Below are positions 8,656-53,884 of a stretch of DNA of 64,000 nt, piece by piece (the stretch's first letter is position 1; the number at the start of each line of letters is the position of its first letter). A program made the position numbers and the translations under genes. Source of the stretch: Escherichia coli (lineage in GTDB: Bacteria; Pseudomonadota; Gammaproteobacteria; Enterobacterales; Enterobacteriaceae); assembly GCF_965641715.1 (NCBI RefSeq), contig NZ_OZ282453.1; one strand, 5' to 3'. The notes beneath the pieces were generated by a model that was not told the DNA's origin, did not search any database, and worked only from the letters and a program-made list of their open reading frames with translations.

Positions 8656-9309
8656 TCACTCAGGGAACAAGTTGATTTGAAGCAAACTGCCAATGTATTT
8701 ACCAGTGCTTTTAATTTTTCGCTTTGATGGCTTACACGAATTCAGGTTGACACCAGCCTGGCTAGATATTGGCTTGTATTGCCGCTCCGCCAGTACGATC
8801 AGGTCTGCCGCGTCTTTTAGCTTTCCATCGTTAGCCAGTTCCAATGCTCGATCCGCCATTTGCCCGCATTGTTGAATCAGCTTAAGTTGCGATACCTCCA
8901 GTCGCAATTGCTGGATTCGTTCTACCACTTTCGCCCTAATGCGCTTAGTTTCACGCATTCCCATTCTTAATGCCTGGTTGCCAGTAAGTGAGTAAACCTC
9001 TTTTTCTTTCCTGAAGTTTGCGGCTTTACCGTCAGCTTGGACGCGCATTTTATGCGCTTCCAAGAATTCGCCCTCCAATTCATCCCTGATCTTCGCGTTG
9101 AATCTGTCGTTCTTGAGTTCATTTAACCCTTCCGCCTTGCGGATCTGGTTGATTAACTCCAACAATTCATCACTGCGGATACGCCACTCGCTATCAACCT
9201 GTACCAAGTCAAACATGTTGTTGCTCCCGTTTTGCTGCCATAGGGCAACGGCTCGCCAGCCTTTATCACCTCCTTTAGTTGTTGCGATTCTTAACTGAAT
9301 GGTTATCAA
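8656..9309 (-). CDS. Hypothetical island protein, charged/coiled-coil-rich (217 aa as ORF; likely start at internal ATG 9216, 186 aa)
   Basis: ORF translation; GGGAG-type RBS upstream of internal ATG at 9216; no domain recognised. Confidence 0.45.
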   Translation of the reverse strand: MITIQLRIATTKGGDKGWRAVALWQQNGSNNMFDLVQVDSEWRIRSDELLELINQIRKAEGLNELKNDRFNAKIRDELEGEFLEAHKMRVQADGKAANFRKEKEVYSLTGNQALRMGMRETKRIRAKVVERIQQLRLEVSQLKLIQQCGQMADRALELANDGKLKDAADLIVLAERQYKPISSQAGVNLNSCKPSKRKIKSTGKYIGSLLQINLFPE

Positions 9310-9380
9310 AACGCTGCGTTAATATCATTGATATGTATCAAATTTGTTTTGTGACGCGACAATGCCTTGTGAATATCAAT

Positions 9381-9404
9381 AAAAAACCCAGCGCTATGGC
9401 TGGG
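9381..9404 (-). terminator. Intrinsic terminator-like hairpin downstream of HTH-protein gene
   Basis: aaaaaa-CCCAGC-gctatg-GCTGGG on plus strand, i.e. hairpin followed by T6 on minus strand. Confidence 0.45.
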
Positions 9405-9437
9405 CTTCGTTTAATGAGATGGGATTGAAAGCGGGTT

Positions 9438-10220
9438 TTATTTATCTCCCAGATTGTATTCCCAGTTGGGAAGTAAAGTTATCAGCTTGTCACCTTTCTT
9501 GCCTTTGCCGATCTGGTTGCCGTTCTCGTCTTTCTTGTGTGTGATTTCCTGGTCAACCTTAATCAATCCTCTCTCTTTGGCTTGCTCAATCAGTCGGTAG
9601 AATGCGCCGTTACTAATCGGCTTCCGGTTACCGTCGTTATCCATCGCAGTGATTTTCTGTTGCAGTCCGGCGTTATTGCCCAGGTATTCGCCACCTAACG
9701 CCGCCAGTACCTGACACAACATGCCGACACTGTATTTTTTCGGATTTGGGTTAATCCATTCTTTAGCTCCCATCTCTTTTTTGTCGTTGGGCGCTTGTTC
9801 TGCTGCTACTGCGTTCACCTTTTCATCTCCCATCTTGTTACCGCTTGCTGTGCGCTTAATTTCTTCCAGTTCTCTCTCAAGCTCACCTATACGTAATTCA
9901 CGCTCGATAATTACCCCGCGCAGCACATCATCATCACCGTGAGGGCTTGCCTGAATCCAGTTACCATTGGCGAGCGGTAGGAGGGCATAAATTCCGAACA
10001 GGTCACAAAGCGCGGCAAGTGTATTAAAATCAGGTTCCCGGCGTCCCTCCATCCAGTGGCTAACAGCGCCTTTTGTGACTGGTTCGCCTTTCTTGCTTTT
10101 AACACCCATGCGATCCAGTGCGGCGGCTATCTCTTCGCATTTAATGCCACGACCGCCAGCATAGCCCGCCGCTTTCGCGGCCCCTTTGAGGATGTCGTGA
10201 ATTTTCATTTCGTAACTCAT
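9438..10220 (-). CDS. Putative HTH (XRE-like) DNA-binding protein with uncharacterised C-terminal domain (260 aa from second ATG)
   Basis: Helix-turn-helix-like segment ...EEIAAALDRMGVKSKKGEPVTKGAVSHWMEG...; GGGAGA RBS 8 nt upstream of ATG at 10220. Confidence 0.55.
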   Translation of the reverse strand: MSYEMKIHDILKGAAKAAGYAGGRGIKCEEIAAALDRMGVKSKKGEPVTKGAVSHWMEGRREPDFNTLAALCDLFGIYALLPLANGNWIQASPHGDDDVLRGVIIERELRIGELERELEEIKRTASGNKMGDEKVNAVAAEQAPNDKKEMGAKEWINPNPKKYSVGMLCQVLAALGGEYLGNNAGLQQKITAMDNDGNRKPISNGAFYRLIEQAKERGLIKVDQEITHKKDENGNQIGKGKKGDKLITLLPNWEYNLGDK

Positions 10221-10226
10221 AATTTT

Positions 10227-10257
10227 ATCTCCCATCTCATGAACTATGGTGGGAGAT
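10227..10257. promoter_or_regulatory. Inverted repeat ATCTCCCA-N15-TGGGAGAT overlapping RBS/start of the HTH gene (candidate operator)
   Basis: Arms at 10227-10234 and 10250-10257 seen directly in sequence; the left arm coincides with the RBS/first-codon sequence, so arm identity may be partly coding-driven; function inferred. Confidence 0.3.
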
Positions 10258-10316
10258 TAACACGGCGGGCCTGTGGCGGGTAAGTGTAACGGGAGAGAAT
10301 GTTGATTCAGGTCACA

Positions 10317-10337
10317 AAAACCCGGCGCGGGGCCGGG
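10317..10337 (-). terminator. Intrinsic terminator-like hairpin downstream of the 158-aa island ORF (copy 2 of 21-mer)
   Basis: Identical to 8628-8648. Confidence 0.45.
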
Positions 10338-10359
10338 CTGTGTTAGTACGTCGTTGCTC

Positions 10360-10836
10360 TTAGTTCATGAGGAGATCTTTAAATTCGACGCCGTATTCAT
10401 GGGCAATGTCGCCTCTATAGTAGATGTTATCTTTCAGGATATATCCGACGTTTCTCAGGACGTGAGAACACTCTCTTACTGCTGCCTCTTTACCCCTTAA
10501 AACATCCTCCCCGCTAACTTCTTCGCCGCTGTACTTCACTGCGATGTTGTCTGCTGCACGCTCTGCTGCTTCCAGGCAATTAATCTTCACTTTTCCCCGA
10601 TTCTCCCAGGCAAAATCGCGGCCATAAATCCCCATTGCATCAACCATCTTTTGCGCAGTAGTGCGCTCATCCACCCATTCAGTGCGTTCGAACTTCTCGC
10701 CAGCAGCTACCCTTGCCGCCAGTTGTTCGTGTTGAGTCTGTACGGCCGCAGCCTCTTCTTCCCATTTGCCTTGCTCGTTGTATACGATGAAGCCAGTGAT
10801 GACTGCAGCGATTAGTAACTTGTCCAGAAAATTCAT
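10360..10836 (-). CDS. Hypothetical membrane-anchored protein (158 aa, N-terminal hydrophobic helix)
   Basis: ORF translation MNFLDKLLIAAVITGFIVY...; strong AGGAGGA RBS upstream of ATG. Confidence 0.5.
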   Translation of the reverse strand: MNFLDKLLIAAVITGFIVYNEQGKWEEEAAAVQTQHEQLAARVAAGEKFERTEWVDERTTAQKMVDAMGIYGRDFAWENRGKVKINCLEAAERAADNIAVKYSGEEVSGEDVLRGKEAAVRECSHVLRNVGYILKDNIYYRGDIAHEYGVEFKDLLMN

Positions 10837-11089
10837 AGCTTCCTCCTATCTGTTCAATTACCCGGCATCTCTTGCCGTTGAACGTATTAAACAAAATGCC
10901 AGTCAGGGATAAAGCGATCTGCGTCATAAAGTCCATCCCCCATCTCATTGATATTGATGGGAGATTGTTTAATTGGTCAGAAATTAAGCGTTTATGTGCG
11001 CTGCCGGGTATCCACCTCCTATCTGAAGATGGAAAGATGGGTGATATAATGTGATGGCAATTGGTGGATTGCGTGGTTTTTACAATGAT

Positions 11090-11120
11090 AAGGGGCTGGC
11101 GTAATGCTGGCCCCTTTGTT
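11090..11120 (+). terminator. Plus-strand-specific hairpin plus T-run (candidate terminator of a short plus-strand transcript)
   Basis: aggggctggc-gtaat-gctggcccc-tttgttt; stem needs G-U wobble pairs so folds only as plus-strand RNA. Confidence 0.3.
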
Positions 11121-11356
11121 TATCCGGTATCCGGTATCCGGTATAAGCGGGCGTGTATCCGGTAGCGGGGATATGGGCGCGTGTACGTGAAATCTGGCAA
11201 ATTAGCAGGGTAATTGTGAGGGAATTTTTGCGTAGGAGCGTTTGTGGCTGGTAGCTCAAAATTGAGCTTTGCTTTTCATTCAATGACTTAGGTTAATTCT
11301 AGCAAAACGCTAGGATTGAATGTCCGCCAGTCTGCTTCCCCTAGCGTGGGATTTGG

Positions 11357-13723
11357 TCAACGTCTGCGCGGCTGCAAAATTCCTCCGGGTCGTTGTGATT
11401 CACGCTGCATCAGTCGCATCGCTGTGTTTTCTATGGTCTGCTGCAGCGCTTTTGAGTCTTCCTCTGTCCAGCCGTTGTTAGCCTGGATGTTGAACGTATT
11501 GTTCATCGTGATTCCGCCACCGCCTACCAGATCGCGGCCCGGTGTAACTCGTCCACCTTCACCCGGGATCATGTACTGTTTCCCGCCAGTGGATGTAAAT
11601 AGCTCCGGTACTCCGTGCTCCCCGACCCTATAAAGATTGCCACCGTTAACAGCCCCGCCGTTGTAACGAGCGCCAGCCAGTCCAAGCGTTTTGGCGGCAG
11701 CTACGCCAGTAGTAAGCCCGGTAAGTCCAGTGGCCCCAGCGCCGCCCATCGTGGCTACGTTAGCCAGGTATGCAGGAGTGGCCCACGCCGATCCTAATGC
11801 TGTAGCCTCTGCTAGTGCTTTAGCTGTTGCGGCTGCGTTTGCGGCTTCACCAATTAGCTGCTGTTTAACCCACTCAGCACCCATCTGGACAATGCCACCG
11901 ACCACAGAAGACAGGATCGTACTGCCAACGTTGGCAAGTGACTCTTGCAGCGATTGAGTACCGTTTATCAGTCCGGTAAATGCGCTGCCAGCGCCAGACG
12001 ATAACCCATCGACCATATTCCCGATGAGGCCATTTATATCGCTTTGTTTCTTCCACTGCTGCCACTGGAGATCCAGAACCCTTTGTTCATGTGCGATCTC
12101 TTCCTGGCGCAACTGCTCTTCGGTAGCCCCAAGATCTAGAAGCATTTGCTTGCGAACAGCCCATTCATTTTGGATCTTCTGTATTGGGTCAATCTGAGCT
12201 TTCTGCTTATCCTGCTCACTGACAAGACTGTCCCATTTCGCTTTCTGCTTGCGGATGGCTTCAGCTTCATCAATTGCTGCGAGTGTACTTGCTCGCTGTT
12301 TCGCGCTGATCAACCGTTTCTGCTCAGCCGCTTCCAGGTCTTCTACTGCTTTTTTCCGTTTATTGAGCGCCGCTAGTTCGGGATCGTATTTTTCCACCAA
12401 TGAAAGGCCGCTTGCTTCCTTACGTTCGCGTTCTCTTTGTGCCTGTTTGGCTGCCTGCTTAGCGGCGTTTTCTGCTTGTTTGGCTGCTCTTTCTTTCGCC
12501 CTGGTGTTCTCTTCTTCCTTGCGCTTATTCTCTTCTAACTCCTTGTTTTGTTCGCGTAATTTAACGATTTCCTCATGATGCGCCTTTGTCAGCTGGCCTT
12601 CTTTCAGTGCCCGATCTATATCAGCGTTTGCGTTGCCTTTTAGCTGTTCCTGTTTAACTTGCAGATGTTTAATCATCATTTCGCCAGTGGCAATCGCTGC
12701 CGCAGACGCTCCAGCATTCAGAGCTTCATTTAACGCTCTCTGACGTTCTTCTGCTGTTAATGCCTCGTTGCTGTATCGAAGTAGCGCATCAACGTATTTC
12801 TCCAGTTCTGCGCGGCCTGCCGCAGTTGCTGGTTCCATTGCTTTTAGGATGCTCAGAAGGCTTTGCGCTTCATAGGAAGACGGGTTTTTGCGGAACTGCG
12901 CCATAGCGTTATAAAGCGCCATAGCTTCACCCTCTGTGATTCTGTACTTAGCTCCCAGCCCTTCAATGACCGCTGATAACTGTTTGCCAAGCGCTGCACC
13001 GAATGCGCCTTCCTTGCTTAATTTGTTGAGCACTTCACTCAGTGAATTTCCTGACACGCCCAGCGCGTCGAGTTCTCTTGCTACCGTTCCCAGGTCGCCG
13101 CCTTTCATCCATCCTGCATTAGAAAATTCAGTGATAGCCCGGCCCGCTTCCCGCGTTTCTTCCTGGAGTGTTTTTAGCGCCCGCACGGCCTGCTCTTTCA
13201 TTACGGCGGCGGCAATGGCGTTGTTCTGTGTGGCTTCGTAATATGAATCACTGAAAGCGTTAACGCCCTGGGTGGATTTGCCGATCACGGCGTCGATTGA
13301 TGCTAATGCCTCCTTCATCCTTTCAGCGCTATCCGTTGCGTCGTCCATGCTGTCCGTTAGGCTGTTGGCAATCGCCCCGCCAATAGCCATCACCGCCCCC
13401 ATGACCGCACCGCCAGTACCGAAGGCAGCGGCAAGTTGTGCACCCTGCACAGCGAACGCCTGGAGCGCATTACCGCCCATCTGCAATTGAGTGGCAAGGT
13501 CTGCGATCTGGTATGATGCGTTACGGATTGCCGGGGAAAGGTTGGTTTTGACTGCGGCAGACGTTTTGGTCATCTGCGTGTTCAGTTTTTTGACGCCACT
13601 GTCAGCGCGTTTTGCGCCGCGTTCTATACTGTCAAAAGCCTGGTCCGCTTCTTGTTGTGCTGCCAGGAGTTTACCAGTACGGGCGTCGACCTCATAGTAT
13701 ATGGTCCCAAGATTCCCACTCAT
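11357..13723 (-). CDS. Phage tail tape-measure-like protein (788 aa)
   Basis: Long Ala/Gly/Gln-rich coiled-coil protein; C-terminal motif ...GGNLYRVGEHGVPELFTSTGGKQYMIPG... resembles the conserved C-terminal block of siphovirus tape-measure proteins. Confidence 0.6.
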   Translation of the reverse strand: MSGNLGTIYYEVDARTGKLLAAQQEADQAFDSIERGAKRADSGVKKLNTQMTKTSAAVKTNLSPAIRNASYQIADLATQLQMGGNALQAFAVQGAQLAAAFGTGGAVMGAVMAIGGAIANSLTDSMDDATDSAERMKEALASIDAVIGKSTQGVNAFSDSYYEATQNNAIAAAVMKEQAVRALKTLQEETREAGRAITEFSNAGWMKGGDLGTVARELDALGVSGNSLSEVLNKLSKEGAFGAALGKQLSAVIEGLGAKYRITEGEAMALYNAMAQFRKNPSSYEAQSLLSILKAMEPATAAGRAELEKYVDALLRYSNEALTAEERQRALNEALNAGASAAAIATGEMMIKHLQVKQEQLKGNANADIDRALKEGQLTKAHHEEIVKLREQNKELEENKRKEEENTRAKERAAKQAENAAKQAAKQAQRERERKEASGLSLVEKYDPELAALNKRKKAVEDLEAAEQKRLISAKQRASTLAAIDEAEAIRKQKAKWDSLVSEQDKQKAQIDPIQKIQNEWAVRKQMLLDLGATEEQLRQEEIAHEQRVLDLQWQQWKKQSDINGLIGNMVDGLSSGAGSAFTGLINGTQSLQESLANVGSTILSSVVGGIVQMGAEWVKQQLIGEAANAAATAKALAEATALGSAWATPAYLANVATMGGAGATGLTGLTTGVAAAKTLGLAGARYNGGAVNGGNLYRVGEHGVPELFTSTGGKQYMIPGEGGRVTPGRDLVGGGGITMNNTFNIQANNGWTEEDSKALQQTIENTAMRLMQRESQRPGGILQPRRR

Positions 13724-28980: not shown

Positions 28981-30282
28981 TTACTGCTTTAACGCCGCAT
29001 ACACTTGATCAACTACCCAACCATAAGTTGCAATCGGCAACTGACCGCTTTCGAACATATTGGGATTTTTGTGTGGATCGGCAACTGGCGAATGTGGCTT
29101 GTTGCTTAACATCACAATCGCCATATGATTCACCGGATCGATAACGGTCACCGTCCCGGTCCAGCCAGTGTGACCGTAGGTTTGCGGGCTTGCCAGCGTG
29201 CCAAACGTCGGCGTCATGGTGGCATTACCATTCACGCGCCAGCCAAGGCCAAAAGTGGCATCTTCCTTAGAGCTGGTGGTGAACATCTTCACCGTTTCCG
29301 CACTGAACAGCTGCACATCACCATAGCCACCGCCGTTCAGCATCGTTTGCATTAACACCGCAATATCGCCGGTATTGGAAAACAAACCTGCGTGCCCGGA
29401 AACACCGCCCATCGAATAAAAGGCTTTTTCATCGTGCACCTGACCCCAGAGAGTGGAGGTGCGGATATTCGGGAAATGGATCACGCCATCGCGGGTATTG
29501 CCGTTCAGTTCCGTGGCGGCAATTTGCTGTGGTTTAAAGCCTTTCAGCAGCGGATTAAATACCGTGTGCGTCAGGCCGAGCGGGCGATAAATCGACTCTT
29601 CAACATAGCGGTCAAGTGGCTGACCGGTAACCGACTCGACGATAAATCCAAGCAGCATATAATCGACATCGCTGTAGATATGCTTGCTGCCGGGCTGATA
29701 CTCCAGCGGCGTGCGCTTGATCATCTCCAGCGTCTGGCCTTTATCCTGGGAATATAACGCGCCCGCGACCGCTTTATTCGGATATTGTGGGTCCGCCGGG
29801 AAACCGCCGCTGTGATGCAGCAGATCAGAAATCCGCAACGTGTTTTTGCCTTTAATGGTGTCATTTGGGTTATCGGCAAATCCCGGAATATATTTCGCAA
29901 TCCGATCGTCAGGATGCAGCTTGCCTTCGCTCATTAGCTTTTGCAGAGCAAAGTTAGTGGCGTACATTTTGGTGTTTGAGGCCAGATCATACAGCGTCCC
30001 GGTGGTGGCTTTTACAGGCTGCGCCATTAACGTGCTGCCATCGTACTTTTTCGCCGCGCCCCAGGCTTTGCGATAAACAATCTGATTATCTTTTATAATC
30101 AGCAGGTTTACGCCGGGATAACCGGCGTCCACTTGCTGGCTTATCCAGCGATCCATCTGATTAAGCCGTTCGACGTTAAACCCTGCTTTCTCTGGCGAAC
30201 TTTCTGTCAGAACAGGGTATTTTGCGGCGCTGACGCTACAGCTGACAGCCAGCAGAGAAAGATAGAGCATTGTCCGTTTCAT
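28981..30282 (-). CDS. yfeW: Penicillin-binding protein 4B / beta-lactamase-fold DD-peptidase YfeW
   Basis: Signal peptide plus serine beta-lactamase-like translation; start chosen at MKRTMLY. Confidence 0.8.
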   Translation of the reverse strand: MKRTMLYLSLLAVSCSVSAAKYPVLTESSPEKAGFNVERLNQMDRWISQQVDAGYPGVNLLIIKDNQIVYRKAWGAAKKYDGSTLMAQPVKATTGTLYDLASNTKMYATNFALQKLMSEGKLHPDDRIAKYIPGFADNPNDTIKGKNTLRISDLLHHSGGFPADPQYPNKAVAGALYSQDKGQTLEMIKRTPLEYQPGSKHIYSDVDYMLLGFIVESVTGQPLDRYVEESIYRPLGLTHTVFNPLLKGFKPQQIAATELNGNTRDGVIHFPNIRTSTLWGQVHDEKAFYSMGGVSGHAGLFSNTGDIAVLMQTMLNGGGYGDVQLFSAETVKMFTTSSKEDATFGLGWRVNGNATMTPTFGTLASPQTYGHTGWTGTVTVIDPVNHMAIVMLSNKPHSPVADPHKNPNMFESGQLPIATYGWVVDQVYAALKQ

Positions 30283-30286
30283 ATTA

Positions 30287-31711
<1,425 letters not shown>

Positions 31712-49131: not shown

Positions 49132-49350
49132 ATGGAAAAAGAGCAGCTGATTGAAATAGCCAATACGATAATGCCGTTTGGCAAATACAAAGGGCGTCGC
49201 TTAATCGACCTGCCGGAGGAGTATCTGCTGTGGTTTGCCCGCAAAGATGAGTTCCCGGCAGGGAAGCTCGGTGAGCTAATGCAAATCACGCTGCTGATTA
49301 AAACCGAGGGGCTGACGCAACTGGTCCAGCCCCTGAAGCGTCCGCTTTAA
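49132..49350 (+). CDS. ypeB: Small conserved protein YpeB (72 aa)
   Basis: ORF immediately after ligA stop; translation MEKEQLIEIANTIMPFGKYKGRRLIDLP... Confidence 0.7.
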   Translation: MEKEQLIEIANTIMPFGKYKGRRLIDLPEEYLLWFARKDEFPAGKLGELMQITLLIKTEGLTQLVQPLKRPL

Positions 49351-50345
49351 GCTTTATCGGTGCTGCTTTCCTGCTGCGCCTGTAACTGTTCGGTCTGGCG
49401 TTTGTATCGACGCGCCAGCACCGCACAGACCATCAATTGGATCTGATGGAAAATCATCAGGGGCAGCACCATCATACCGATCACCGATGTGGGGAACAGA
49501 ATGTTTGCCATCGGGATGCCATTTGCCAGACTCTTTTTCGAACCACAAAAGACGATAGTAATTTCATCTGCCTTATTGAAGCCCAGTCGGCGTGCCATAA
49601 AGACGTTAACTACAATCACGATAGCCAGAAGAACGCAGCTGACCACCACGATAAACAGCAATGATCCCCAGCCAACTTTATGCCAGATACCATTAACGAC
49701 GGCTTCGCTGAACGCTGTATAAACCACCAACAGAATGGACGTCTGGTCAGTTTTCGCAATCCATTTTTTATTGCGCGACACCCAGTCACCAATCCACGGC
49801 CGGGAAAGATGCCCCAACACAAACGGCAGCAGCAGTTGCAGCATAATTTTACCGACCTGCTCAAGGCTGCCCCCTGCACCGTGAACATTCATCACCAGAC
49901 CAACCAGCAATGGTGAAAGGAAAATCCCCAGCAGGCTGGATGCTGACGCAGAACAAACCGCCGCCGCGACGTTACCGCCCGCCATTGACGTGAAGGCGAT
50001 TGCAGACTGCACGGTAGCCGGGAGAATGCACAAGTAGAGAAAACCGGAGTAGAGCATCGGGTCGACATTTACCGGTTTCCACCAGGCAAACAGTACACCC
50101 AGAATCGGAAACAGCACGAAGGTGCTGCACATTACCCACAAATGCAGTCGCCAGTGACCACCGCCAGCAATAATCGCCTCACGCGACAACTTCGCGCCGT
50201 GCATAAAGAACAGCAGGGCAATAGCTGCGGTGGTCAGATTTTCAAAGAAGGGGACGAAATCGCCTCTGGCCGGAAAGAAAGAGGCCAGCAACACCACCGT
50301 GATCAGGGTTAAGGTGAAAGGATCGAGGATACGAAAAAGTTTCAT
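49347..50345 (-). CDS. yfeH: Bile acid:sodium symporter-family membrane protein YfeH (332 aa)
   Basis: Polytopic membrane translation, synteny. Confidence 0.85.
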   Translation of the reverse strand: MKLFRILDPFTLTLITVVLLASFFPARGDFVPFFENLTTAAIALLFFMHGAKLSREAIIAGGGHWRLHLWVMCSTFVLFPILGVLFAWWKPVNVDPMLYSGFLYLCILPATVQSAIAFTSMAGGNVAAAVCSASASSLLGIFLSPLLVGLVMNVHGAGGSLEQVGKIMLQLLLPFVLGHLSRPWIGDWVSRNKKWIAKTDQTSILLVVYTAFSEAVVNGIWHKVGWGSLLFIVVVSCVLLAIVIVVNVFMARRLGFNKADEITIVFCGSKKSLANGIPMANILFPTSVIGMMVLPLMIFHQIQLMVCAVLARRYKRQTEQLQAQQESSTDKA

Positions 50346-50434: not shown

Positions 50435-51361
50435 ATGAATTATTCTTTAAAACAATTAAAGGTTTTCGTCACAGTAGCGCAGGAGAAAAGTTTTAGTCGT
50501 GCAGGAGAGCGTATCGGCCTGAGCCAGTCGGCAGTAAGTCACAGTGTGAAGGAGCTGGAAAATCATACTGGTGTTCGCCTGCTGGACAGAACCACGCGTG
50601 AAGTGGTGCTTACAGATGCAGGGCAGCAGTTGGCTTTGCGTCTTGAGCGACTGCTGGATGAACTTAACAGCACGTTGCGCGATACCGGGCGTATGGGGCA
50701 ACAACTGAGCGGAAAAGTTCGGGTCGCTGCCAGCCAGACCATTTCCGCGCATCTTATTCCGCAATGCATTGCTGAAAGCCATCGCCGCTATCCAGATATT
50801 CAGTTTGTCCTGCACGATCGTCCGCAGCAGTGGGTGATGGAAAGTATTCGCCAGGGAGATGTCGACTTTGGCATCGTCATCGATCCAGGCCCAGTGGGCG
50901 ATCTGCAATGTGAAGCGATTCTTTCCGAGCCTTTCTTTCTGCTTTGCCATCGCGATAGCGCTTTGGCCGTGGAAGATTATGTACCCTGGCAGGCATTACA
51001 GGGAGCGAAATTGGTGTTGCAGGATTACGCGTCAGGCAGCCGACCGCTGATTGACGCAGCGCTGGCGCGCAATGGTATTCAGGCGAATATTGTGCAGGAG
51101 ATTGGACATCCGGCGACGCTGTTCCCGATGGTAGCCGCAGGCATCGGCATCAGTATTCTTCCCGCACTGGCGCTACCATTGCCTGAAGGTAGCCCACTGG
51201 TGGTAAAGCGCATTACGCCGGTTGTTGAACGCCAGTTGATGCTGGTGCGCAGGAAGAACCGTTCACTTTCCACCGCCGCTGAAGCGTTATGGGACGTGGT
51301 ACGAGACCAGGGCAATGCGCTAATGGCTGGTCGGGAAGGGGATCCGTTGTATCAGATATAG
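50435..51361 (+). CDS. yfeR: LysR-family transcriptional regulator YfeR (308 aa)
   Basis: N-terminal LysR HTH; divergent from yfeH. Confidence 0.85.
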
Positions 51362-51693
51362 ATATCGATATGAGTCGTATTTTCAACAGGATTTAGAAGG
51401 GATACATTCAGAGACAAACGCTGCTCTTTCTCCTGCGCCTTTTCTGCCTGCTGTCTCTGCAACTGCGCCAGTTGTGTTTCCAGTAGGGTGATTTGCTGTT
51501 GAATCAATTCGGCCTGTTTTTGCTTGTCTTCAGCACTGCCGCTAGTGTCTACAATCTCTTTAATTTGTTGAGTGAGTTTGATGATTTGCTGACTTATCCG
51601 CGCGATTTGTGAAGCAACATCGCTACCTTGTGATGCCCTGTTACTACTCTGTGTTTGTATGGAAGGAATTGAAGTTGAAGAGATAGTGGCCAT
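51352..51693 (-). CDS. FlxA-like Gln-rich coiled-coil protein (113 aa)
   Basis: Translation ...[48 protein letters not shown]... resembles FlxA-like family; overlaps yfeR 3' end by 10 nt. Confidence 0.4.
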
Positions 51694-51781
51694 TGTTCAG
51701 TCCTCGTCACTGTACGAGGTAATATCGGTAGAAGAACAAGGAACTTGAGAAGAAAAATCAATCTTACAAATCGCAGATAGC

Positions 51782-51808
51782 AAAAAAGCGCCTTTAGGGC
51801 GCTTTTTT
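51782..51808 (-). terminator. Intrinsic terminator of tRNA operon (after lysV)
   Basis: aaaaaagcgcc-tttagg-gcgc-tttttt palindrome directly 3' of tRNA-Lys. Confidence 0.6.
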
Positions 51809-51812
51809 ACAT

Positions 51813-51888
51813 TGGTGGGTCGTGCAGGATTCGAACCTGCGACCAATTGATTAAAAGTCAACTGCTCTACCAACTGAGCTAACGACCC
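51813..51888 (-). tRNA. lysV: tRNA-Lys (anticodon UUU)
   Basis: 76-nt cloverleaf; reverse complement reads GGGTCGTTAGCTCAGTTGGTAGAGCAGTTGACTTTTAATCAATTGGTCGCAGGTTCGAATCCTGCACGACCCACCA. Confidence 0.95.
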
Positions 51889-51892
51889 GAAG

Positions 51893-51968
51893 TGGTGGGT
51901 GATGACGGGATCGAACCGCCGACCCCCTCCTTGTAAGGGAGGTGCTCTCCCAGCTGAGCTAATCACCC
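51893..51968 (-). tRNA. valY: tRNA-Val (anticodon UAC)
   Basis: 76-nt tRNA, anticodon loop CTTACAA on coding strand; identical to the other two copies. Confidence 0.95.
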
Positions 51969-52014
51969 ACTTCGGTACTTCACATTGTTACAAGAAATTT
52001 AGCTGGCGAGAAAG

Positions 52015-52090
52015 TGGTGGGTGATGACGGGATCGAACCGCCGACCCCCTCCTTGTAAGGGAGGTGCTCTCCCAGCTGAGCTAATCACCC
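52015..52090 (-). tRNA. valX: tRNA-Val (anticodon UAC)
   Basis: Identical copy. Confidence 0.95.
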
Positions 52091-52134
52091 ACTTCTCAAT
52101 TTCTTGCTACACGGCGGAGACTACATAAAGTAGT

Positions 52135-52210
52135 TGGTGGGTGATGACGGGATCGAACCGCCGACCCCCTCCTTGTAAGGGAGGTGCTCTCCCAGCTGAG
52201 CTAATCACCC
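52135..52210 (-). tRNA. valU: tRNA-Val (anticodon UAC)
   Basis: Identical copy, first gene of operon. Confidence 0.95.
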
Positions 52211-52468: not shown

Positions 52469-53884
52469 ATGAAAATCAAAACTCGCTTCGCGCCAAGCCC
52501 AACAGGCTATCTGCACGTTGGCGGCGCGCGTACTGCTCTTTACTCCTGGCTTTTTGCACGTAACCACGGCGGTGAGTTCGTGCTGCGTATTGAAGACACC
52601 GATCTTGAGCGTTCCACGCCGGAAGCTATCGAAGCCATTATGGATGGCATGAACTGGCTGAGCCTGGAGTGGGATGAAGGTCCGTACTACCAGACCAAAC
52701 GTTTTGATCGCTACAACGCAGTGATCGATCAGATGCTGGAGGAGGGCACTGCTTATAAATGCTATTGCTCTAAAGAGCGCCTGGAAGCGCTGCGCGAAGA
52801 ACAAATGGCGAAAGGTGAGAAGCCGCGTTATGACGGTCGCTGCCGCCACAGTCATGAGCATCACGCTGATGATGAGCCGTGTGTCGTACGTTTTGCTAAC
52901 CCGCAGGAAGGTTCTGTTGTTTTTGACGATCAGATCCGTGGTCCGATCGAGTTCAGCAACCAGGAGCTGGATGATCTGATTATCCGCCGTACCGATGGTT
53001 CCCCAACCTATAACTTCTGTGTGGTTGTCGATGACTGGGATATGGAAATCACCCACGTTATCCGTGGCGAAGACCATATCAACAACACGCCACGCCAGAT
53101 CAACATTCTTAAAGCCCTGAAAGCGCCGGTACCGGTTTACGCGCACGTTTCTATGATCAACGGCGATGACGGCAAAAAACTGTCCAAACGTCACGGGGCA
53201 GTCAGCGTAATGCAGTATCGTGATGACGGTTATTTGCCAGAAGCACTGCTGAACTATCTGGTGCGTCTGGGCTGGTCCCACGGCGATCAGGAAATCTTCA
53301 CTCGTGAAGAGATGATCAAATACTTCACTTTGAATGCCGTCAGCAAATCTGCCAGTGCGTTCAACACCGACAAGCTGCTGTGGCTGAACCATCACTACAT
53401 TAATGCGCTGCCGCCGGAGTATGTTGCTACTCACTTACAGTGGCACATTGAGCAGGAAAATATCGATACCCGTAACGGCCCGCAGCTGGCTGATCTGGTG
53501 AAACTGCTGGGCGAACGCTGCAAGACGCTGAAAGAGATGGCACAGAGCTGCCGTTATTTCTACGAAGATTTTGCTGAGTTCGATGCCGACGCCGCGAAAA
53601 AACATCTGCGTCCGGTAGCGCGTCAGCCGCTGGAAGTGGTTCGTGACAAACTGGCCGCGATTACTGACTGGACCGCTGAAAACGTTCATCACGCTATTCA
53701 GGCGACGGCGGATGAGCTGGAAGTGGGTATGGGTAAAGTTGGTATGCCGCTGCGTGTCGCCGTAACCGGTGCGGGGCAGTCTCCGGCACTGGATGTTACC
53801 GTTCACGCAATCGGTAAGACACGTAGCATTGAGCGTATCAACAAAGCGCTGGCCTTTATTGCTGAACGCGAAAACCAGCAGTAA
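52469..53884 (+). CDS. gltX: Glutamyl-tRNA synthetase GltX (471 aa)
   Basis: Class I aa[12 protein letters not shown] (HIGH) motif and KLSKR (KMSKS) motif. Confidence 0.93.

Follow-up and report, generated by a model that had tools for sequence, protein, structure and literature searches.

A flxA-like gene beside a tRNA operon of Escherichia coli probably occupies an ancestral site and may belong to the late flagellar regulon

The interval between yfeR and lysV in Escherichia coli has two quite different contents. In K-12, it holds a block of xap genes and yfeN; in the stretch of E. coli DNA analysed here (the window, 64,000 nucleotides), it holds a single short gene of the FlxA family. This raises the questions of which content is the older, and of how a lone flxA-like gene next to a tRNA operon is expressed. 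The explanation that we regard as highly probable as a whole is that the flxA-like gene stands at its ancestral site, 3′ of the tRNA operon and tail-to-tail with yfeR, that the xap/yfeN block is derived, and that the flxA-like gene has its own sigma-28 promoter.

The interval is bounded on the left by yfeR (50435-51361, plus strand), which encodes a LysR-family regulator of 308 amino acids and was identified from the list of open reading frames (ORFs) and the RefSeq annotation of 99%-identical loci. On the right is the tRNA operon valU-valX-valY-lysV (51813-52210, minus strand), identified by ARAGORN and Rfam tRNA. It comprises three genes for tRNA-Val(UAC), i.e., valU (52135-52210), valX (52015-52090) and valY (51893-51968), followed by lysV for tRNA-Lys(UUU) (51813-51888), and a consensus scan gave a sigma-70 promoter match for it (TTGACT-16-TATAAT, 52255-52228). 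An intrinsic terminator of the operon, AAAAAAGCGCCCTAAAGGCGCTTTTTT (51782-51808, minus strand), was read from the sequence directly 3′ of lysV; it is missing from the consensus-scan list. Beyond the operon, gltX (52469-53884, plus strand) serves as a conserved anchor on the right-hand side of the syntenic block. Between the yfeR stop codon and lysV there are 451 bp, in which the only sizeable ORF is the flxA-like gene (51352-51693, minus strand), which has an ATG start and encodes 113 amino acids. It is convergent with yfeR, and the 3′ ends of the two genes share 10 nt (51352-51361). A preliminary description of this DNA had given the gap as about 450 bp with one Gln-rich ORF of 113 amino acids overlapping yfeR by 10 nt, and in this it was accurate. 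The gap contains no other ORF of at least 60 amino acids with a different function, and no flanking direct repeats.

Such a short ORF of low complexity (18% Gln) in the spacer after a tRNA operon could be a reading frame that arose by chance, or a remnant in decay, particularly as the segment which contains it has a GC content of 43% (52% nearby and for the window), and as frameshifted variants of 95 and 159 amino acids occur in some assemblies. That the ORF is non-functional is nevertheless scarcely conceivable. The protein matches the Pfam family FlxA (PF14282) far over threshold (E 7e-14; 52.2 bits against a gathering cut-off of 26.3 bits; residues 15-92), and at least 80% of the segment is present at 95% identity or more in 1,307 genomes. 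Full-length orthologues are found in several genera, down to 43% identity, with the helical core and the C-terminal motif kept in the alignment; the dN/dS ratio is 0.17-0.24 in those comparisons where dS is unsaturated; and upstream of the ATG there are a Shine-Dalgarno sequence (GAGGA, 51705-51701) and a promoter motif, both conserved and at a fixed distance. Judged by these features of its sequence, the ORF is a genuine gene and did not arise by chance. RefSeq labels its product “FlxA-like family protein”.

The protein is rich in Gln (17.7%) and has no Cys, Trp or Phe. It is predicted to comprise a disordered N-terminus rich in Ser, Thr and Gln (residues 1-24) and an antiparallel helical hairpin. 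In the AlphaFold model, the helices span residues 25-49 and 54-99, with pLDDT of 81-90 across the central helical blocks (approximately residues 31-80), whereas residues 4-22, rich in Ser, Thr, Gln, Ile and Pro, have pLDDT below 50 and no secondary structure. The C-terminal HIDIYI aligns with IDIYV of K-12 FlxA and with every orthologue, so that a hydrophobic tail, IDIY[IV], would be the conserved C-terminal element. If the layout of the FlxA family is taken as approximately 100-125 amino acids, a Gln-rich helical core and a C-terminal (I/V)D(I/V)Y(I/V), the window protein has all three. A sequence search for solved structures matched designed coiled coils alone, which reflects composition, and Foldseek with the model against the PDB had no match that reached E 0.001; the highest-ranked, a FliJ-like CdsO hairpin (E 0.28), is non-significant and is not used as evidence.

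How does the K-12 allele differ? Between yfeR and lysV, K-12 has yfeN-xapA-xapB-(DUF1427)-xapR and an RtT-like unit, i.e., genes for xanthosine utilisation and a Tsx/OmpK-type channel, unrelated to the flxA-like gene. The preliminary description had placed a block xapR-xapB-xapA-yfeN here in K-12, and the block is indeed there, with a length of 4.39 kb. Exactly the same interval is involved in both alleles, from the yfeR stop codon to the lysV terminator region: junction BLAST showed that homology to K-12 ends one base past the yfeR stop codon and restarts at 51759, so that 4,390 bp in K-12 take the place of a 396-bp (0.40 kb) allele-specific segment in the window (51363-51758, to which no strand applies), delimited by junction BLAST, junction sequences, GC content and allele counts. 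The K-12 flanks are 97-100% identical to those of the window. In K-12 and Citrobacter freundii, tblastn at E 1 or better turned up no flxA-like remnant apart from noise. Neither the ORF list nor junction BLAST revealed an integrase, an att-type repeat or a phage gene in the window gap, and the annotation of the K-12 xap/yfeN block has no integrase. An integrative island adjacent to the tRNA genes was thus ruled out, there being neither integrase nor att-like repeats.

The family takes its name from FlxA of K-12 (b1566, phrog_11044), which is encoded in the Qin prophage, and the preliminary description had held that FlxA-like proteins are usually prophage-associated, which would make a lone gene here odd. 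The two proteins are alike in several respects: they belong to the same Pfam family, they are of similar size (110 amino acids for K-12 FlxA and 113 for the window protein), they share a layout of Ser/Thr-rich N-terminus, Gln-rich helical core and C-terminal IDIY[IV], and both genes are lone and monocistronic. However, they are only 43% identical, over 74 residues only; the window protein scores 34 bits against phrog_11044 and K-12 FlxA scores 238 bits; and the window gene lies at a fixed chromosomal site common to several genera, with yfeR and the tRNA operon as neighbours, whereas K-12 flxA lies in a lambdoid prophage. Neither the close similarity to K-12 FlxA nor the lambdoid prophage site that would mark a Qin-type FlxA is thus found. 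A tblastn search of 50,697 phage records with the flxA-like protein gave no match (K-12 FlxA gave one, an induced prophage), and all family members whose context was examined are lone chromosomal genes in non-phage settings. The expectation of a prophage association therefore did not hold: the window gene is a member of a paralogous chromosomal subfamily, distinct from K-12 flxA, and a prophage origin was ruled out by the lack of matches in phage records and the separation from K-12 FlxA in PHROGs.

Within E. coli, alleles were counted over 5,426 complete genomes. The flxA-like allele is present in 1,317 of these (24%), including BL21(DE3) and O157:H7, always as one or two copies of the segment per genome and on chromosomes only; 4,091 genomes (75%), including K-12, have the yfeN segment, and the count for the xapABR segment is the same. 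Almost always, one allele excludes the other. In strain MLI104K2, the locus has decayed into a mosaic in which a flxA-like pseudogene stands with fragments of xapA and xapB. The flxA-like segment falls into two identity classes, with subtypes at 99% and 97%: in 937 genomes identity is at least 99%, and in 377 it is 95-99%. The xap/yfeN block occurs in two forms that are 6-10% apart, with subtypes at 99% and 94%/89.5%. Thus, the flxA-like gene is an ordinary strain polymorphism, already annotated, and the spot beside the tRNA gene is variable in E. coli, as the preliminary description had supposed; a full-text search of the literature found nothing on polymorphism between yfeR and lysV.

The order of the locus in other genera bears on which allele is older. 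Where the contig reaches, the order gltX, two to four tRNA-Val genes plus tRNA-Lys, flxA-like, yfeR, yfeH is found in Pseudocitrobacter, Kluyvera, Pluralibacter and Enterobacter, and the same order from gltX to yfeH is found in one of two Citrobacter lineages and in further Enterobacteriaceae. Among the 21 loci extending as far as yfeR, the flxA-like ORF overlaps or abuts this gene in 19 and lies 17 nt from it in two (L022 and L026); one Cedecea colo locus (L023) has gltX, the tRNA genes and the flxA-like gene only, with no match to yfeR or yfeH. Because this order is common to several other genera, the window is taken to be in the old state and K-12 to carry a replacement, in which the xap/yfeN block would have replaced the flxA-like gene together with its promoter and left no trace; strains with the window allele lack the xanthosine genes altogether. 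The preliminary description had suggested the opposite, i.e., that this strain holds a replacement or deletion, and had allowed that reference genomes with the same arrangement as the ancestral one would refute this; the outgroups provide such genomes.

According to the reading that takes the K-12 order as the norm, the strain lost xapR-xapB-xapA-yfeN by deletion or replacement beside the tRNA genes, and a prophage-type flxA-like gene was left or imported. K-12 and 75% of E. coli do have the block, tRNA genes are common insertion points, and FlxA of K-12 is a prophage protein. A refined version of the deletion is conceivable from Citrobacter: in C. amalonaticus the order is lysV-xapR-xapB-xapA-flxA-like-yfeR, i.e., xapABR has been added and the flxA-like gene kept (C. 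freundii has xapABR without flxA-like or yfeN), and deletion of xapABR from an ancestor of this kind would leave the short allele; the mosaic of MLI104K2 is also in favour of this reading. Against this, the arrangement without xap genes is seen in several other genera, the lysV-to-flxA-like spacer of the window is colinear with that of Pseudocitrobacter and has no xap remnant, the gap has no mobile-element features, and the protein differs from the prophage type. The deletion reading is largely refuted by outgroup synteny, and we consider it very unlikely. A different possibility is that the gene is old in the Enterobacteriaceae but that the E. coli ancestor had xap/yfeN, and that the short allele was re-acquired by homologous recombination from a Pseudocitrobacter-like donor, with yfeR and the tRNA operon as flanks. 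A genome scan for the flxA-like locus matched no species representative of Escherichia or Salmonella, so that the case for ancestry within the genus Escherichia is an indirect one, and E. coli may have re-imported the allele. The contexts in E. albertii, E. fergusonii and Salmonella were sought via the YfeR cluster, whose listed members are all from E. coli. Compared with a Pseudocitrobacter metagenome-assembled genome (MAG), the flxA-like segment has 91-96% nucleotide identity and a dS of 0.10, whereas the adjacent yfeR has a dS of 0.71, a difference which, on the sequences compared, shows a recent exchange between genera at the locus. In addition, yfeR of E. coli is unusually near that of Pseudocitrobacter (dS 0.71, against 2.5-2.8 to C. 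freundii and E. hormaechei), and the neighbouring genes have no such bias. However, transfer from E. coli to Pseudocitrobacter is equally possible; compared with P. faecalis, the flxA-like gene (dS 0.55) and yfeR (dS 0.71) are similarly diverged; the two identity classes of the segment in E. coli indicate long residence; and repeated import fits the xap/yfeN block, with its two forms, better than it fits the short allele. Re-acquisition therefore seems unlikely, and the flxA-like gene at its ancestral site is preferred.

If the window allele is the older, a view centred on K-12 has to be corrected, as the laboratory reference has the derived state at yfeR-lysV. BL21(DE3), O157:H7 and approximately a quarter of E. 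coli have kept the older gene and lack xapABR and yfeN, which predicts that they do not grow on xanthosine. For annotators and for pan-genome studies, the locus is also a clean example of one allele exchanged for another between a stop codon and a tRNA terminator; the practical value is small.

The flxA-like gene is probably transcribed from its own promoter. A sigma-28 (FliA) type motif, TCAAGTTC-N11-ACCGATAT, lies upstream of it (51721-51748, minus strand), with the -35 element at 51748-51741 and the -10 element at 51729-51722, as found by pattern match and by a position weight matrix (PWM). The pattern TMAAG-N15-CCGATA has one match in the window, against 0.01 expected. With the PWM, which was built from ChIP-seq FliA sites (PMC4183435), the motif scores 15.5, the second best of 128,000 positions, although this is below the median of verified FliA sites (19.8); its -10 element in E. 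coli starts with A where the consensus has G. From the motif, transcription would start at approximately 51715, giving a leader of approximately 22 nt. In 19 of 23 orthologous loci, the best PWM match of the whole 3-12 kb locus sits 27-36 nt before the ATG (the 23 loci fetched represent 21 distinct species or strains, as P. faecalis and K. ascorbata each occur twice). E. hormaechei likewise has the motif, and so do distant members of the family with unrelated genomic surroundings; in the latter it lies 29-31 nt before the ATG. In K-12, ChIP has verified a FliA promoter for the prophage paralogue flxA, whose expression drops 140-fold in a fliA deletion (PMC4183435); from the end of the -10 element to the ATG there are 23 nt in K-12 flxA (motif 21 nt) and 28 nt in the window gene. 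The flxA-like gene would thus be a class-3, i.e., late, member of the flagellar regulon, like flxA of K-12. Across several genera and in unrelated contexts, the family goes with a sigma-28 motif at a short, constant spacing from the start codon, which speaks for a genuine function in the late flagellar programme. A full-text search of the literature found nothing on “FlxA-like”, and what it found on the function of FlxA went no further than membership of the regulon.

The leader has a further feature, the inverted repeat CCTCGT-ACAGTG-ACGAGG (51702-51719, minus strand; RNA fold). Its 3′ arm covers the GAGGA Shine-Dalgarno sequence, and its 5′ arm lies at approximately -4 to +2 of the predicted start. 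The transposase gene of IS10 is protected from outside transcription by “fold-back inhibition”. The two are alike in that the 3′ arm lies over the ribosome-binding site and the 5′ arm coincides with or precedes the gene's own start (here a predicted one). Because of this position of the 5′ arm, only read-through transcripts would fold. Perhaps, then, the hairpin silences read-through transcripts from the tRNA operon, whereas sigma-28 transcripts would start inside the hairpin and remain translatable. Unlike the IS10 case, the pairing is weakly conserved: the window hairpin folds at -8.6 kcal/mol (z -2.5), but in orthologues a pyrimidine tract is found at the same place with weak folds (z 0.7 to -2.5), and apart from the E. 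coli/Pseudocitrobacter sequences and some of those from Kluyvera, no hairpin reaches significance. Folded one by one, 23 upstream regions (22 orthologues and K-12 flxA) have a mean z of approximately -1, and several have no hairpin. On these grounds, the hairpin as a conserved RNA element is entertained only as a hypothesis.

What the protein does in the late flagellar programme is a matter for speculation; possibly, it is a late substrate of the flagellar type III apparatus. In E. coli, FlxA of K-12 was enriched in the exoproteome with FlgK, FliD, FliC, FlgL and FlgM, although this exoproteome also held cytoplasmic CheY and metabolic enzymes (PMC6391000); because of the latter, lysis together with induction of the regulon could explain extracellular FlxA. 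At 42 °C, the protein and mRNA of K-12 FlxA are regulated oppositely, and secretion of FlgM is impaired (PMC6551532). The flxA-like protein is like FlgM and the other sigma-28-dependent late substrates in being small, in having a class-3-type promoter and a disordered Ser/Thr-rich N-terminus, and in that its K-12 paralogue is found extracellularly with FlgM, FlgK, FlgL, FliD and FliC. It is unlike them in that it has no sequence or significant fold similarity to them and that no chaperone gene adjoins it. The disordered N-terminus expected of a late export substrate is present (residues 4-22); this is necessary but far from sufficient. Speculatively, and by analogy, the protein may thus resemble FlgM-type late substrates in behaviour only. 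The most far-reaching form of the idea, which is quite unlikely, is that the FlxA family is an unrecognised class of small late flagellar type III substrates, made from sigma-28 transcripts only, with an anti-Shine-Dalgarno hairpin blocking translation of read-through RNA from the tRNA operon, which is strongly expressed, and that the gene has been traded for xanthosine utilisation in three quarters of E. coli.

A minor observation concerns the region directly after lysV. In the window, no RtT-like repeat unit follows lysV, and an Rfam search of the gap matched no RNA family; in K-12 and other strains, one or two extra RtT units of 156 bp are present there. The RtT-like unit is the sole tRNA-derived repeat at this locus, and it varies independently.

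The flxA-like ORF of the window (113 amino acids, 51352-51693, minus strand) is already annotated, belongs to a known family and sits at a site whose polymorphism is known. It is flanked on one side by yfeH (49347-50345, minus strand) and yfeR (50435-51361, plus strand), and on the other by lysV, the gene for tRNA-Lys(UUU) (51813-51888, minus strand), three tRNA-Val(UAC) genes ending at 52210 (minus strand) and gltX (52469-53884). The ORF and yfeR are convergent and overlap by exactly 10 nt, and 451 bp lie between the yfeR stop and lysV; the gap, the ORF, its Gln-richness (17.7% Gln; no Cys, Trp or Phe) and the overlap are all as the preliminary description gave them. The RefSeq name of the ORF is already "FlxA-like family protein". 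The protein matches the Pfam family FlxA (PF14282; E 7e-14, 52 bits, cut-off 26 bits), and none of the NCBIfam models is specific for it. Orthologues are full length down to 43% identity and have kept both the core (…SQIxRITQQIxKLTQQLK…GSAEEKQKQ…, followed by a further 15 residues) and the C-terminus (…HQIDIY[IV]), with a dN/dS of 0.17-0.24 where dS is measurable. The gene is real.

The FlxA family is small: among 1.8 billion cluster representatives, 276 match at E <=0.001, and nearly all members have 100-125 amino acids. FlxA of K-12 is 43% identical to the window protein over 74 residues (E 2e-12), and the two have their size and C-terminus in common. However, the phage family phrog_11044 is matched by K-12 FlxA with 238 bits and by the window protein with only 34 bits, and among 50,697 phage records K-12 FlxA is found in one induced prophage, whereas the window protein has no match. 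By these comparisons, the window protein belongs to a subfamily separate from the prophage FlxA. The family members looked up are lone genes amid metabolic or regulatory genes, none of them in a prophage or a flagellar operon; thus, a lone gene is the norm for the family, not an oddity, as had been supposed from a prophage association of FlxA-like proteins.

In K-12 (BW25113), the yfeR-lysV interval contains yfeN, xapA, xapB, a small DUF1427 gene, xapR and a feature annotated as "RtT sRNA". Junction mapping shows that homology to K-12 extends past the yfeR stop codon to 51362, where it ends, and restarts at 51759, 24 nt ahead of the lysV terminator. Thus, window 51363-51758 (396 bp, 43% GC) corresponds to 4,390 bp (47% GC) in K-12, between flanks of 97-100% identity. 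Of 5,426 complete genomes of E. coli, 1,317 (24%) have the 396-bp segment, always on the chromosome and once or twice in each (median 1); BL21(DE3), E. coli B ATCC 11303 and strains of O157:H7 are among them. The yfeN segment and the xapABR segment of K-12 are each present in 4,091 genomes (75%). The two states hardly ever occur together and jointly cover all but about 18 genomes.

Each state has subtypes. The flxA-like segment is found at >=99% identity in 937 genomes and at 95-99% in 377; xapABR at >=99% in 2,433 and at about 94% in 1,451; and the yfeN part at >=99% and at about 89.5%, the latter in 1,464 genomes. The divergence between the two E. coli forms of the xap/yfeN block (8964-13353 of the K-12 locus) far exceeds that of its flanks, which suggests that the block was imported into E. 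coli more than once. A rare, decayed mosaic allele occurs in E. coli MLI104K2 (L027 5890-7100), in the order yfeR, 54 bp of K-12-type sequence, a flxA-like pseudogene (75% identity to the window gene), a 64-bp xapA fragment, xapB fragments and lysV; it may be a relic of an arrangement with both flxA-like and xapABR, as in Citrobacter amalonaticus. Some E. coli assemblies have frameshifted versions of the flxA-like gene, one of 159 amino acids (P0001, P0002), reaching into the antisense of yfeR, and one truncated to 95 (P0007), so the gene is not intact in every carrier.

The RtT feature of K-12 and many other strains, 156 bp long, lies between the terminator and lysV and repeats the lysV 3′ end plus terminator. 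The window has no copy, K-12 and many strains have one, and MLI023K2 has two (region compared: window 51759-51830; K-12 13354-13570; public loci L002 4414-4539 and L028 5414-5695). Copy number varies independently of the neighbouring allele, flxA-like or xap. Rfam gave no match to RtT in the window.

Which state is older can be read from other genera. An alignment of the flxA-like protein, run against a single genome from each bacterial species, returned 22 loci, annotated by tblastn and ARAGORN, from Pseudocitrobacter, Kluyvera (seven species or strains), Pluralibacter, Enterobacter, Cedecea, Citrobacter and other Enterobacteriaceae. The order gltX, two to four tRNA-Val plus tRNA-Lys, flxA-like, yfeR, yfeH is present in all loci of sufficient length except that of Cedecea colo (L023), which has gltX, the tRNAs and flxA-like with no match to yfeR or yfeH. 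Of the 21 loci that extend to yfeR, 19 have the flxA-like ORF overlapping yfeR by up to 10 nt or abutting it, and the other two have it 17 nt away; Enterobacter hormaechei matches the window in layout, with a 113-aa ORF and a 10-nt overlap. C. amalonaticus has xapR-xapB-xapA between lysV and flxA-like, the latter kept at the place where K-12 has yfeN; Citrobacter freundii has xapABR and neither flxA-like nor yfeN; and K-12 has no trace of flxA-like. The simplest reading is that the ancestral state in this part of the Enterobacteriaceae was lysV/flxA-like/yfeR, that the xap genes would have arrived in the interval later, and that in K-12-type E. coli yfeN would have replaced the flxA-like gene together with its promoter. 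The preliminary interpretation was therefore half right: the K-12 gene order had been given correctly and the spot is variable, but the replacement or deletion ascribed to this strain belongs to K-12, as the arrangement shared by several genera is that of the window, and the prophage link fails. One scan locus, L012, labelled "Chryseobacterium sp. 18061", shows the synteny usual for Enterobacteriaceae and is almost identical to the locus of Citrobacter sp. 18056; almost certainly the label is wrong or the assembly contaminated.

The locus may also have been exchanged between genera. Comparison of window 50435-51693 with four loci (L004, L005, L030, L032) gives, for E. coli yfeR, a dS of 0.71 to Pseudocitrobacter faecalis versus 2.5-2.8 to C. 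freundii and E. hormaechei, a bias that zipA, ligA, yfeH and gltX do not have. This closeness of yfeR is seen in all E. coli strains, K-12 included. The flxA-like segment is 91-96% identical to that of a Pseudocitrobacter MAG, with a dS of 0.10 next to a yfeR dS of 0.71. Such values suggest inter-genus exchange, by which some E. coli lineages could have regained the short allele; the low dS and the lack of any Escherichia or Salmonella representative among the loci of the species scan speak for such a re-import. We regard it as rather unlikely, and the allele could instead have passed out of E. coli. With or without re-import, the conclusion is unchanged: the arrangement is old and that of K-12 is the replacement.

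Sequence and conservation both show a sigma-28 promoter motif ahead of the gene, at a fixed distance from its start codon. The motif TCAAGTTC-N11-ACCGATAT (51748-51722, minus strand; 28 nt ahead of the ATG) fits the consensus TAAAGTTT-N11-GCCGATAA, and the 64-kb window has a single match to TMAAG-N15-CCGATA where 0.01 would be expected. With a weight matrix derived from the stronger of the FliA sites mapped by ChIP-seq (Fitzgerald et al. 2014; PMC4183435, Table 2), the site scores 15.5, second best among 128,000 positions and within the range of verified FliA sites (8.7-29.3). In 19 of 23 orthologous loci (from 21 distinct species or strains, with two samples each of P. faecalis and K. ascorbata; both strands scored), the top-scoring position across the entire 3-12 kb falls 27-36 nt ahead of the flxA-like ATG, and the stretch between the two elements is not conserved. 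E. hormaechei has the motif 28 nt ahead of the ATG. Among distant family members in unrelated contexts, two have the motif 29 and 31 nt before the ATG and a third has a weak one. In K-12, flxA has a FliA promoter verified by ChIP, and its expression falls from 280 to 2 on deletion of fliA (PMC4183435); there, the -10 element ends 23 nt before the ATG, and the 28-nt motif 21 nt before it. Thus placed, the window gene is very probably a class-3 gene of the flagellar regulon, with a predicted FliA-dependent start near 51715, and what remains of interest is the role of a small-protein family linked to sigma-28. The best matrix match in the window, GAAATATATTCCGGGATTTGCCGATAAC (score 20.8; 29869-29896, minus strand), is intragenic, in sense orientation within a 462-aa yfeW/pbp4B-like ORF (28981-30369), and is absent from the 52 K-12 FliA sites listed in PMC4183435.

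There is no terminator between the flxA-like gene and yfeR, either at 51352-51361 or in orthologous loci; given the 3′ overlap or abutment, sigma-28 transcription would enter yfeR antisense and might conceivably interfere with the YfeR/YfeH pair, which is osmoregulated. An inverted repeat, CCTCGT-ACAGTG-ACGAGG (51719-51702; -8.6 kcal/mol, z -2.5), pairs the Shine-Dalgarno sequence. Its 5′ arm spans roughly -4 to +2 relative to the predicted start, so only RNA reading through from the tRNA operon would form the hairpin; speculatively, it might act on such RNA much as in the fold-back inhibition of IS10. Orthologues have a pyrimidine tract at the matching position and some have compensatory stems (e.g. 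CCTTAT/ATAAGG in Kluyvera); their folds are weak overall.

Speculatively, the protein, whose expression is probably late within the flagellar regulon, might be exported via the flagellar type III apparatus. FlgK, FliD, FliC, FlgL and FlgM are late export substrates. E. coli FlxA is enriched with these five in an exoproteome that also held cytoplasmic CheY and metabolic enzymes (PMC6391000), and FlxA protein and mRNA are regulated in opposite directions at 42 C, a temperature at which FlgM is secreted inefficiently (PMC6551532), both data sets being on the K-12 paralogue. A PDB sequence search with the window protein returned designed coiled coils only, and Foldseek no significant match. AlphaFold, run with the orthologue alignment (mean pLDDT 67.8), predicts a hairpin of two helices (25-49 and 54-99) about the conserved GSGSAEE turn (pLDDT 81-90 across about residues 31-80, <=69 toward the end of helix 2) and a low-confidence C-terminal tail. 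Residues 1-24 are predicted to be unstructured, and this disordered, Ser/Thr-rich N-terminus would fit export.
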